64,000 bases of DNA. Source: Escherichia coli. Lineage in GTDB: Bacteria > Pseudomonadota > Gammaproteobacteria > Enterobacterales > Enterobacteriaceae. Location: NCBI RefSeq assembly GCF_003334405.1, contig NZ_QOWM01000002.1; one strand, written 5' to 3'. The position numbers were made by a program, and so were the translations under genes. Positions 11,240-31,800 of this stretch are shown one piece after another (position 1 is the first letter of the stretch; each line of letters starts with the position of its first letter). The notes under the pieces are model-generated. The model made no database searches. It was not told the DNA's origin and saw only the letters and a list, made by a program, of their open reading frames with translations.

Positions 11240-12130
11240 TTACTTTGTAATGAGATCGGGGTCAACTTCGCTTAACCGGCTTCGTTTTGACAGGTTGCCG
11301 GTCTTTCTTTTTTTCACTTTCGCCAGTTCTTCCGCAGAGTAATGCGACGCGACATCCAGCCGTCGAAGCCCCATTTTGATGTACTCGCTGTTGATCTCAA
11401 TACCAATGAATTTTCGTCCGCTGGCGATGGCTACGGCACCGGTAGTAAAGCTACCAGCAAACGGGTCGAGAACGATATCGCCTGGGTTGGAAGAGGCGAG
11501 AATAATGCGTTTCAGTAAGGCTTCCGGTTTTTGCGTCGGGTGGTTTTCATATTCATCCATCAAATAACGCACGCGCGGAAAATCCCAAACGTTACCCGGT
11601 ACTTTTTGATGATTGTAAGGCTGTGGAGGATTTTTGCGATAATCGATCAACGCGCGCTGCGATCCGGTTTTGGCTTCTACCAGAATAGCATCACCGTTGA
11701 ATGTGTAGTTCTTTGCGTCTTTCACCATCATCAGGATGGGTTCGTACATGGAGCCGTAGTGTTTTTTCGCCTGCACTCCAGAACTGTCATATGACCAGAC
11801 GATGCGACTTTTGATGGTAAAAAGCTTGCGGCACTGGAGATCGATAAAGGGCATGTTTTCCGTACTGTTCATGATGTACATGCTGCCCTGCTTTTTCAGA
11901 ACGCGGTGGCACTCTGCAATCACTTCAAACAGCCAGTCGATAAACAGATCTTCTTTCCAGGCTTCGATCAGACCATCAAAATTTTTACCGATGTTATATG
12001 GTGGGTCGGCAAAGATCAGATCGACACTTTCGGCGGGGATCTTTTTAAGTTCGGCAAGCGCATCACCGTGAATAATGGTCTTAGCTTCATTACCAAACCG
12101 GGTCGGTTCACATCCTGTTCTCATGGTCAC
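11240..12130 (-). CDS. yhdJ: Orphan N6-adenine DNA methyltransferase (beta-class)
   Basis: Motif IV DPPY (FADPPYNIG) near the N-terminus and SAM-binding FxGxG-like motif (DPFAGSFTTG) near the C-terminus; no adjacent restriction endonuclease ORF. Confidence 0.9.
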   Translation of the reverse strand: MTMRTGCEPTRFGNEAKTIIHGDALAELKKIPAESVDLIFADPPYNIGKNFDGLIEAWKEDLFIDWLFEVIAECHRVLKKQGSMYIMNSTENMPFIDLQCRKLFTIKSRIVWSYDSSGVQAKKHYGSMYEPILMMVKDAKNYTFNGDAILVEAKTGSQRALIDYRKNPPQPYNHQKVPGNVWDFPRVRYLMDEYENHPTQKPEALLKRIILASSNPGDIVLDPFAGSFTTGAVAIASGRKFIGIEINSEYIKMGLRRLDVASHYSAEELAKVKKRKTGNLSKRSRLSEVDPDLITK

Positions 12131-12209
12131 TCCCTTTGTGACACCTATAAAAAAGGCGCTTCCCCATGCCGAGTAGCGCCTTTTTAATCAAGCATTTAGC
12201 TAACCTGAA

Positions 12210-12506
12210 TTAGTTCATGCCGTATTTTTTCAATTTTTTACGCAGCGTACCACGGTTGATGCCCATCATCAGCGCAGCACGGGTCTGGTTACCACGGGTG
12301 TATTGCATCACCATGTCCAACAGGGGCTGTTCTACTTCAGCCAGTACCAGCTCATAGAGGTCATTCACATCCTGACCATTCAGTTGAGCAAAATAGTTCT
12401 TCAGTGCCTGTTTAACCGAGTCACGCAGGGGTTTTTGGGTTACCTGATCCTGAGAGTTAACGGTAGAAACGGTCAGTACGTCAGAATTTACGCGTTGTTC
12501 GAACAT
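12210..12506 (-). CDS. fis: Nucleoid-associated protein Fis
   Basis: 98-aa [24 protein letters not shown]...[13 protein letters not shown] with C-terminal HTH. Confidence 0.97.
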
Positions 12507-12531
12507 AGTTCTGTCAGCTCTTTATTTCTGT

Positions 12532-13497
12532 TTACGCAAAATTTTCGAAGTATGCCTCCAACGCCTCCAGCTGTTCGCTGGCATCCTCAATGGCGTTGAA
12601 TGTGCGCCGAAACTGGTCATTTGGAGCGTGTTCCTGGAGATACCAGGAAACGTGTTTACGTGCAATTCGGTACCCTTTTGCCGGACCATAAAAGTCATGC
12701 AGTTCCCGAACGTGCGCGCAAAGCAAGCGCTTAACCTCTGCCAAAGGCAGCGGGGGCAGCAACTCCCCAGTGTCCAGATAATGCTGGATTTCCCGAAAGA
12801 TCCAGGGTCTTCCCTGAGCTGCGCGGCCTATCATCAGGGCATCCGCCCCTGTATAGTCGAGCACAGCTCTGGCTTTAAGCGGGTCAGTAATGTCGCCATT
12901 CGCGATAACCGGAATGGAAACTTTCTGCTTAACTGCCCGAATACTGTCGTACTCAGCTTCTCCATTGAACAAACAGGCGCGTGTACGGCCATGAATGGTC
13001 AGAGCCTGAATGCCACAGTCTTCAGCCAGTTGGGCAATCTCTTCGCAGTTACGGTGTTCCGGTGCCCAGCCGGTGCGAATCTTCAGGGTAACAGGAACGT
13101 CCACTGCATTGACGACCTCGGTAAGGATCGATTTAACGACATCCGGGTACTGCAAGAGGGCTGAACCTGCGAGCTTGCGATTCACTTTTTTAGCCGGGCA
13201 ACCCATATTGATATCAATAATCTGGGCACCGCTTTCCACGTTAATACGTGCTGCATCTGCCATTTCTTTCGGATCGCTACCAGCAATTTGCACGGTGCGA
13301 ATACCGGGTTCATCAATGTGCACCATCCGTAAACGAGATTTGTCGCTTTCCCAAACCTGTGGGTTAGAAGACATCATCTCGGATACTGTCAATCCGGCTC
13401 CCATCTCGTAGCACAACGTCCGAAAAGGTCTGTCTGTAATGCCAGCCATGGGCGCTGCGATCAGGCGATTTCTGAGCTGATATTGTCCGATGCGCAT
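12532..13497 (-). CDS. dusB: tRNA-dihydrouridine synthase B
   Basis: 321-aa ORF, Dus-family flavin TIM-barrel protein immediately upstream of fis in the same operon. Confidence 0.95.
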
Positions 13498-31334: not shown

Positions 31335-31800
31335 TAATTGCCCCAATCTCATAGGATAATCGTTGCCAAAGGCCAACGAGCCAGAACATAACCGTAGGTC
31401 GGATAGGGCGTTCACGCCGCATCCGGCAGCCGTTGCCTGATGCGACGCTGTGCGTCTTATCAGGCCTACAAACGGAACATAACCGTAGGTCGGATAAGGC
31501 GTTTACGCCGCATCCGGCAGCCGTTGCCTGATGCGACGCTGTGCGTCTTATCAGGCCTACAAACGGAACATAACCGTAGGTCGGATAAGGCGTTTACGCC
31601 GCATCCGGCAGCCGTTGCCTGATGCGACGCTGTGCGTCTTATCAGGCCTACAAACGGAACATAACCGTAGGTCGGATAAGGCGTTTACGCCGCATCCGAC
31701 AGCCGTTGCCTGATGCGACGCTGTGCGTCTTATCAGGCCTACAAACCGGAACATAACCGTAGGCTGGATAGGGCGTTCACGCCGCATCCGGCAGCCGTAA
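31335..31800. repeat. REP/BIME cluster: about 5 tandem copies of a ~91-bp unit, each with two REP palindromes
   Basis: Unit GAACATAACCGTAGGTCGGATAAGGCGTTTACGCCGCATCCGGCAGCCGTTGCCTGATGCGACGCTGTGCGTCTTATCAGGCCTACAAACG recurs at 31384, 31475, 31566, 31657 and 31749. Confidence 0.88.

Follow-up and report, generated by a model that had tools for sequence, protein, structure and literature searches.

A stand-alone ATGCAT methyltransferase gene, yhdJ, directly downstream of the fis terminator in Escherichia coli

The yhdJ locus and its product

The gene yhdJ lies on the minus strand of the E. coli DNA analyzed here as a single 64-kb stretch (hereafter the window), where it takes its place in the order panF, prmA, dusB, fis, yhdJ, then yhdU, with acrS convergent to this series and acrEF beyond (table 1). 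In the annotation, its neighbors comprise yhdZYX, acrFE, acrS, yhdU, fis, dusB, prmA, panF, yhdT, and accCB. The fis gene stands directly upstream, as the initial annotation had noticed, and 85 nt separate its stop codon from the ATG of yhdJ; on the other side, a scan of the interval between yhdJ and yhdU detected no terminator-like site. Positions 10900–12600 of the window match E. coli K-12 MG1655, in which yhdJ is annotated, at 100% identity, as they do many other E. coli genomes.

Table 1. Features of the yhdJ locus, with positions counted from the first nucleotide of the window.
Feature	Position	Strand	Remarks
yhdU, DUF2556 small membrane protein, downstream neighbor	10977..11156	-	Adjoins yhdJ in all enteric loci
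Promoter-like site TTTTCA-16-TATATT, yhdJ–yhdU spacer	11195..11222	-	Consensus match only, 9/12
yhdJ CDS (M.EcoKII)	11240..12124	-	294 codons plus stop; RefSeq annotation, NF008572, PF01555, MG1655 identity
Motif I variant F-A-G-S-F, SAM-binding loop	11447..11461	-	Residues 222–226; aligns with CcrM DPFFGVGTTG
Motif IV D-P-P-Y, catalytic motif	11996..12007	-	Residues 40–43; aligns with CcrM DPPY
GTG ACC, two extra codons	12125..12130	-	In the mechanical ORF; probably untranslated
Spacer from terminator U-tract to yhdJ ATG	12125..12148	-	24 nt; no promoter-like match
Shine–Dalgarno sequence GGGAG	12130..12134	-	5 nt before ATG; in the enteric alignment, position conserved, sequence variable
dusB-fis intrinsic terminator	12149..12185	-	Stem AAAAAGGCGCU / AGCGCCUUUUU; 14-nt loop with 3-bp inner helix
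fis, upstream neighbor, last gene of the dusB-fis operon	12210..12506	-	NCBIfam NF001659, 180.9 bits (cut-off 99)

The minus-strand ORF that was first delimited, from 11240 to 12130, counts 296 codons from a GTG. The ORF itself stands, but its upper coordinate does not: the RefSeq start of yhdJ is the ATG at 12124, which yields a product of 294 aa (WP_001258895.1) and is the point from which every enteric yhdJ orthologue aligns. The GTG, at 12128–12130, overlaps the Shine–Dalgarno sequence, so that the upper limit had been placed 6 nt too far and the two additional codons are probably not translated.

The identity proposed for this gene from the letters alone is established by three lines of evidence: its product reaches 589.5 bits on the NCBIfam equivalog NF008572 (cut-off 292), with residues 1–294 on profile positions 1–294, its DNA is 100% identical to that of K-12, and its synteny is conserved. 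The ORF is yhdJ, and it encodes M.EcoKII, a beta-class N6-adenine DNA methyltransferase. It is a real gene that was correctly read, an ordinary one and one already known: E. coli K-12 has four DNA methyltransferases, and the one encoded by yhdJ has been characterized since 2007. The YhdJ/M.EcoKII of K-12, with which it shares its entire nucleotide sequence, its neighbors, and its 294-aa product, is credited to Broadbent et al. 2007 (as cited in PMC4444293).

With regard to the fold, the Pfam family PF01555 (N6_N4_Mtase) matches residues 34–251 of YhdJ at 3e-64 (model positions 1–218 of 221), and the protein aligns collinearly, over its full length, with beta-class enzymes of known structure, namely CcrM (6pbd, 3.6e-33), M.MboIIA (1g60), and M.RsrI (1eg2). 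The motifs come in the order IV then I that defines the beta class, with a target-recognition region between them; the arrangement initially read as DPPY followed by a SAM motif is thus borne out by profile and structures alike, and the motif assignments held under profile validation. As for their placement, DPPY is indeed near the N-terminus, but the SAM motif, described as FxGxG-like and near the C-terminus, sits in the C-terminal third and not at the extreme end, within the loop D-P-F-A-G-S-F-T-T-G (residues 220–229). Motif IV LIFADPPYNIGK is invariant in 25 of 25 enteric sequences and, among the matches listed, present in 48 of the 56 other relatives. In motif I, the last G of FxGxG is an F throughout the subfamily, and since this F-x-G-x-F is common to restriction-enzyme-linked relatives too, it does not reflect an enteric degeneration; its F-A-G-S-F core is identical in every variant listed. 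A degenerate SAM motif was considered as the cause of the silence of the enzyme in E. coli (see below) and was rejected, F-x-G-x-F being normal for the subfamily.

The best solved-structure match, CcrM of Caulobacter (residues 10–265 of YhdJ), shares with YhdJ the beta-class motif order, the DPPY, HPTQKP, and DPF-x-G motifs, and the status of orphan methylase. However, CcrM has 366 aa and a C-terminal extension that the 294 aa of YhdJ do not include, and YhdJ falls below the cut-off of the CcrM equivalog NCBIfam NF050803 (135.4 bits versus 830, in two partial stretches), so that it is CcrM-like in its catalytic core only. CcrM targets GANTC, is regulated along the cell cycle, and is essential in several alphaproteobacteria.

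Activity of YhdJ in E. coli and Salmonella

When overexpressed, M.EcoKII methylates the second A of ATGCAT (ATGC(m6A)T) and blocks NsiI, whereas in K-12 the enzyme is silent and the deletion of yhdJ has no phenotype (PMC4444293). The K-12 allele that was tested and the yhdJ studied here have the same sequence, which is the basis for carrying over the ATGCAT specificity. ATGCAT methylation was not detected by SMRT sequencing of ER2796, which carries an intact yhdJ (PMC4444293), nor in E2348/69 (PMC8495745), nor in three natural E. coli isolates (PMC9911048), and no core ATGCAT methylation sites were found across 84 strains (PMC13360123); the specificity and phenotype of YhdJ are also covered in PMC13337833. 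S. Typhimurium has no ATGCAT methylase other than YhdJ, with 513 sites of which none is methylated in a deletion mutant. The bacterium nonetheless does not need YhdJ to grow, to move, or to infect macrophages and mice, and the enzyme has almost no effect on the transcriptome (PMC9239280). It is also the most condition-variable methylase of this bacterium, ATGCAT methylation going up in a metJ mutant as well as when SPI-2 is induced (PMC9239280). According to a 2026 preprint, Salmonella has more of its ATGCAT sites methylated when in mid-exponential phase than when in late stationary phase, and about 61% of sites are ever methylated (bioRxiv 10.64898/2026.01.27.702048). The target and the dispensability that the initial annotation had stated thus match the published record (PMC4444293; PMC9239280). 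The activity of YhdJ is proven only through overexpression and in Salmonella; native yhdJ-dependent methylation in E. coli was detected neither in K-12 nor in E2348/69 nor in the three natural isolates.

Dam, an alpha-class enzyme, and Dcm, a C5-cytosine methylase, are, like YhdJ, solitary methylases that are fixed in the chromosome and conserved widely among enterics. Unlike YhdJ, they are expressed and have nearly all of their sites methylated (PMC13337833; PMC13360123).

The Salmonella enterica YhdJ is an orthologue, 79% identical in the subspecies arizonae and diarizonae, and its locus resembles that of E. coli in the order dusB-fis-yhdJ-yhdU, in the terminator, in the motifs, and in the target ATGCAT, yet the Salmonella enzyme is natively active whereas that of E. 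coli is silent. The Shine–Dalgarno sequence of yhdJ looks weaker in Salmonella (UGGAA) than in E. coli (GGGAG), where it is flanked by a 5-bp hairpin, GUCAC/GUGAC, and the start region is predicted to be unpaired with a probability of 0.55 in E. coli versus 0.48–0.56 in Salmonella. A translation block as the cause of the E. coli silence was considered on this account and does not explain the difference, the predicted accessibility of the start region being equal. Given this equal accessibility and the weaker Salmonella Shine–Dalgarno sequence, the cause of the species difference is not visible in the yhdJ locus. As a separate observation, a GGDEF-EAL gene lies between yhdU and acrS in subspecies diarizonae, and a smaller insert is found at the same place in subspecies arizonae.

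Descent and retention of a solitary methylase

The absence of any restriction or specificity gene nearby, which had been claimed from the open reading frames, holds up against both the annotated neighbors and a profile search. The annotation lists 25 features in the 12 kb on either side of yhdJ, none of them an hsdS/hsdR or res gene, so that no specificity or Res subunit gene is there to make it a member of a type I or type III system, and no cognate endonuclease gene adjoins it as would be expected of a complete type II restriction–modification system. Even with every filter disabled, a profile of the partner enzyme described below, built from 39 sequences, gave no match in any of the six frames of the 64-kb window or of 24 enteric loci (best E-value 2.2).

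Relatives of yhdJ were collected by a scan of one genome per species, from which the best 80 loci were listed, 24 of them enteric and 56 non-enteric. Among these matches, the enteric order prmA-dusB-fis-yhdJ-yhdU-acrS is kept in all sufficiently long loci of Escherichia, Citrobacter, and Salmonella, and no yhdJ of Klebsiella or Enterobacter figures among the 80. The next-best relatives within the same set are 58–72% identical and belong to Pseudoalteromonas, Marinobacterium, Nostoc/Anabaena, Prochlorococcus, Bacteroidota, and Clostridia. Their gene contexts have nothing in common except one conserved gene of 345–395 aa, found immediately downstream of the methylase in 45 of the 56 non-enteric relatives among the matches listed. 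This gene matches the PADLOC profile PDLC03455, "Type II restriction enzyme," at 5e-70 to 4.5e-159; it is named by PADLOC only, as searches of Pfam, NCBIfam, and PDB sequences gave no match. In a midpoint-rooted neighbor-joining tree, computed without support values, the enteric yhdJ sequences form one clade nested among the restriction-enzyme-linked methylases.

Because its closest non-enteric relatives nearly always adjoin a type II restriction enzyme gene of which the enteric loci retain no trace, yhdJ looks like an orphaned methylase, and from these sequence comparisons we consider it very probable that the gene originated as the methylase member of a type II restriction–modification pair. 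The most economical reading would be that of an ATGCAT-type methylase orphaned and acquired once by an enteric ancestor: the methylase alone would have become fixed between fis and yhdU in the common ancestor of Escherichia, Citrobacter, and Salmonella, and would then have been kept by purifying selection. Systems of the NsiI/AvaIII type, which recognize ATGCAT, are the putative kin of the relatives paired with the PADLOC enzyme, which occur in Bacteroidota, Prochlorococcus, Nostoc/Anabaena, Marinobacterium, and Pseudoalteromonas, whereas the window holds neither the partner nor a remnant of it. AvaIII is an ATGCAT enzyme named for a cyanobacterium (PMC2779907), and this source fits the Nostocales relatives of yhdJ.

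Two possible vestiges of such a past were considered and rejected. One was yhdU as a relic of the partner enzyme, as the partner profile matches it neither in the window nor in the 24 enteric loci. The other was an avoidance of ATGCAT in the window as a footprint of past restriction: its 9 sites do amount to an approximately three-fold under-representation relative to dinucleotide shuffles (27.5 +/- 5.9), but ATGCAT ranks only 27th among the 64 six-base palindromes under an order-2 Markov model and 33rd under the maximal-order model, which amounts to a generic palindrome avoidance. In the loci that do carry the restriction enzyme gene, the ATGCAT ratio is 0.39 (rank 10 of 64 palindromes), a moderate depletion only.

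Within E. coli, yhdJ is present in 5,418 of 5,426 complete genomes (99.9%), at least 80% of the gene being found in 5,388 (99.3%). Compared with its counterparts in two Citrobacter species, a divergent E. coli, and E. whittamii, it has a dN/dS of 0.04 to 0.11. Synonymous substitutions have reached saturation between genera, and the comparisons with both Salmonella and with the remaining Citrobacter yielded no ratio because their dS was saturated. The ORFs are intact, at 290–294 aa, in the enteric loci long enough to show it. At the same loci, the Fis protein is 98–100% identical (100% in all but one locus), and the synonymous divergence of fis is very low. As judged from these substitution patterns, yhdJ is under strong purifying selection, and the low dN/dS together with the intact ORFs indicates that it is not decaying, despite its silence.

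It could still be argued that yhdJ is, in E. coli, a decaying and functionless relic retained by chance or by linkage to fis. Such a relic would agree with the lack of detected ATGCAT methylation in E. coli, with the finding of no core methylation sites across 84 strains (PMC13360123), and with the lack of a visible phenotype, and the high synonymous divergence of yhdJ is consistent with low expression. It is difficult, however, to reconcile with an ORF that is intact in every sufficiently long enteric locus and near-universal in E. coli, with a low dN/dS that also holds within Escherichia, with a motif IV that is invariant in the enteric clade and an F-A-G-S-F core common to every variant listed, and with a K-12 allele that is active when overexpressed (PMC4444293); the selection data bring this explanation close to refutation, and we regard it as extremely improbable. 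Conversely, yhdJ may have been retained as a "vaccine" against incoming ATGCAT-specific restriction–modification elements, its pre-methylation blunting their killing or addiction, or protecting exported DNA. This would explain the conservation of the gene without a regulatory phenotype, and would parallel proposals made for other solitary methylases. Strong purifying selection without a laboratory phenotype speaks for such a role, as do the close relatives, which in many phyla have a type II restriction enzyme for a partner, since near-identical methylases in distant lineages indicate that these restriction–modification elements are mobile; a role related to phage defense has also been suggested by the authors of PMC9239280. 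Yet protection needs real methylation, which is not detectable in E. coli and reaches only some 61% of sites in Salmonella, and the middling rank of ATGCAT among the palindromes of the window (order-2 Markov) denotes no special avoidance, so that we hold this role to be improbable, albeit far less so than decay.

Possible expression of yhdJ from the fis junction

The terminator of dusB-fis is predicted to fold strongly (-29.5 kcal/mol for the 101-nt stretch, z = -3.2) and ends in a U6 tract at 12149–12154, its A-tract making it a two-way terminator; it was missed by a simple scan because its loop exceeds 8 nt. It is near-invariant in 16 sequences of Escherichia, Citrobacter, and Salmonella, the only changes being the deletion of one loop base in C. 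amalonaticus and an A-tract of 4–5 nt. The start codon of yhdJ follows at a distance of 22–26 nt from the U-tract in all three genera, and the spacer of the window is too short for a sigma-70 promoter. Moreover, a consensus scan and a looser scan of the minus strand from 12100 to 12620, both of which cover the sigma-70 consensus only, found no sigma-70-like site above 7/12 in fis or in the spacer.

As yhdJ has no recognizable promoter and a start codon only 24 nt past the U-tract, read-through from fis is the most likely route to its expression, although we would put this route at somewhat less than an even chance. A small share of the dusB-fis transcripts would pass the terminator into yhdJ, which would yield a low expression biased toward the early growth phase, sufficient for the partial ATGCAT methylation of Salmonella but below detection in E. 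coli. Besides the anatomy of the junction (strong fold, near-invariant hairpin, short and constant spacer, and no promoter-like site of 8/12 or more), read-through is indirectly supported by the reported up-regulation of yhdJ, as well as of fis, in lag phase (PMC2780417), and by the observation that a relocated dusB-fis cassette with its natural terminators raised transcription downstream of it, in exponential phase only (PMC4751926). The excess of ATGCAT methylation in mid-exponential over late stationary Salmonella is indirect support of the same kind. Against it, a deletion of dusB-fis entailed no significant change in yhdJ mRNA relative to the engineered control (PMC4751926), but this is not a clean test because in that control fis and yhdJ are separated by a cat cassette. 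In addition, the same junction is found in the active Salmonella and in the silent E. coli, so that read-through alone fails to explain their difference, and the higher Salmonella methylation seen in a metJ mutant and upon SPI-2 induction speaks for SAM supply or other controls and not for a fis-like pattern. The literature searched yielded nothing direct on a mapped start of yhdJ transcription or on read-through at the fis terminator.

One may suppose instead that yhdJ has a condition-specific promoter of its own, independent of dusB-fis, situated in the 3' end of fis or overlapping the terminator and served by an alternative sigma factor or an activator, in which case the silence of E. coli would simply denote a missing inducing signal. 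The listing of yhdJ and yhdU as responsive in a CpxR screen (PMC9600279), the unchanged yhdJ mRNA after deletion of dusB-fis in one study (PMC4751926), and the increased methylation of Salmonella in SPI-2 medium (PMC9239280) would all be accounted for in this manner, and a weak extended -10-like element, TGAAAAAAT, can be discerned at about 12224–12232. However, the minus strand of fis and of the spacer holds no sigma-70-like site beyond 7/12, the 24-nt spacer cannot accommodate one, and transcription from any promoter further upstream must still pass the fis terminator; we consider such a promoter unlikely. At the other extreme, yhdJ could be promoterless and expressed by leakage of the fis terminator exclusively, its ATGCAT methylation being a by-product read-out of the activity of the fis operon, a proposition that we find doubtful, if slightly less so than a separate promoter. 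Were it true, methylation would mark DNA in early exponential growth, the silence of E. coli would reflect tighter termination or lower leakage, and the roughly 2% of E. coli strains in which a 17-kb phage-satellite-like island sits exactly at the fis terminator would amount to naturally occurring uncoupled mutants.

The junction between fis and yhdJ is not contiguous in 117 of 5,426 E. coli genomes. In strain TUM9754 (NZ_CP128939.1), a 17-kb island with integrase, primase, capsid, portal, and terminase genes separates fis from yhdJ; the island is phage-satellite-like and has 45-bp direct copies of the fis terminator on its flanks. In strain 58-3, a DUF6602 gene and an IS1 replace the segment from yhdJ to acrF.

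Overall, we are fairly confident in the explanation that combines these elements, namely, that yhdJ encodes a stand-alone ATGCAT methylase of probable restriction–modification descent, for which read-through of the fis terminator, at somewhat less than an even chance, is the most likely route of expression. With regard to the question of a growth-phase-coupled expression, which the initial annotation had raised from the position of yhdJ behind the fis operon, the anatomy of the junction strengthens it, and a coupling to fis is a reasonable hypothesis. In practice the gene matters little: methylation of ATGCAT blocks NsiI, and yhdJ is already inactivated in cloning hosts that are free of methylation, such as ER3413. 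From the perspective of the gene itself, a methylase that is conserved and under purifying selection, yet silent in E. coli and without a phenotype in Salmonella, is a puzzle recognized in the literature. To this puzzle the present analysis makes three modest additions: a likely origin, with a partner enzyme family now identifiable through a profile; a conserved anatomy from terminator to start codon, which gives the hypothesis of read-through a concrete form; and natural strains whose fis and yhdJ are set apart by an island.

Divergence and the yhdU flank

Across the compared loci of Escherichia, Citrobacter, and Salmonella, adjoining genes present a sharp contrast in evolutionary rate (window 12210-13497 versus 11240-12124). 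The Fis protein is 98-100% identical over the three genera, and 100% in all loci but one, with a synonymous divergence (dS) of 0.05-0.15 for fis and about 0.3 for dusB, whereas the dS of yhdJ is saturated (>2.5), for a protein identity of 75-81%. On the other side of yhdJ, past a spacer harboring a putative promoter-like site, yhdU ends 3 nt from the stop codon of the convergent acrS, and yhdU features in a list of CpxR-responsive genes (PMC9600279).

Further away, the window starts within the end of an rRNA operon. Upstream of yhdX, the K-12 annotation marks the substrate-binding gene as a pseudogene with a frameshift; strains 58-3 and TUM9754 both carry an intact copy. The four tandem naRNA4 matches are spaced by about 91 nt and score 71-77 bits each (Rfam gathering score, 59.5).

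Features of the window and of the comparison loci
Feature	Location	Strand	Genome or remark
rRNA operon tail: partial 5S, tRNA (annotated Thr), second complete 5S	window 1-351	+	
Substrate-binding gene of an amino acid ABC transporter	window ~3711-4735	-	
yhdU	window 10977-11156	-	
Promoter-like site, yhdJ-yhdU spacer	window 11195-11222	-	putative
naRNA4 x4, tandem (nucleoid-associated ncRNA, REP-type repeat)	window 31397-31739	+	Rfam
GGDEF-EAL protein gene, 699 aa	L015 5282-7381		Salmonella enterica subsp. diarizonae; between yhdU and acrS
yhdJ-less locus	L082 20092-23023		E. coli 58-3, NZ_CP050036.1
Stretch with IS4-like ISVsa5 transposase insertion	NZ_CM169476.1 472991-476029		E. coli EC25
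Phage-satellite-like island, ~17 kb	L083 3012-20100		E. coli TUM9754, NZ_CP128939.1; corresponds to window 12149-12190

Rearrangements around yhdJ

In subsp. diarizonae, the GGDEF-EAL product is c-di-GMP phosphodiesterase-like; no GGDEF-EAL gene occupies the yhdU-acrS position in the Escherichia and Citrobacter loci, and the insert at this same position in subsp. arizonae is smaller (about 0.9 kb). Within E. coli, the ISVsa5 copy of EC25 falls somewhere inside the acrS-yhdU-yhdJ-fis stretch, the remainder of which is identical to K-12. In 58-3, one of 8 E. coli genomes devoid of yhdJ, a DUF6602 gene together with a copy of IS1A stands in place of the entire yhdJ-yhdU-acrS-acrEF segment, with a breakpoint directly after the fis terminator.

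An island at the fis-yhdJ junction

The fis-yhdJ junction is split in 117 of the 5426 E. coli genomes scanned, about 110 of which carry two copies of it; the single example examined is TUM9754. In this strain, the island, which encodes a tyrosine integrase, a primase, HK97-type capsid, protease, and portal proteins, and a terminase, sits precisely in the fis-yhdJ interval, with a 45-bp direct repeat on either side (43/45 identical), the repeat being the fis terminator itself. In TUM9754, the island is predicted to cut yhdJ off from fis transcription.
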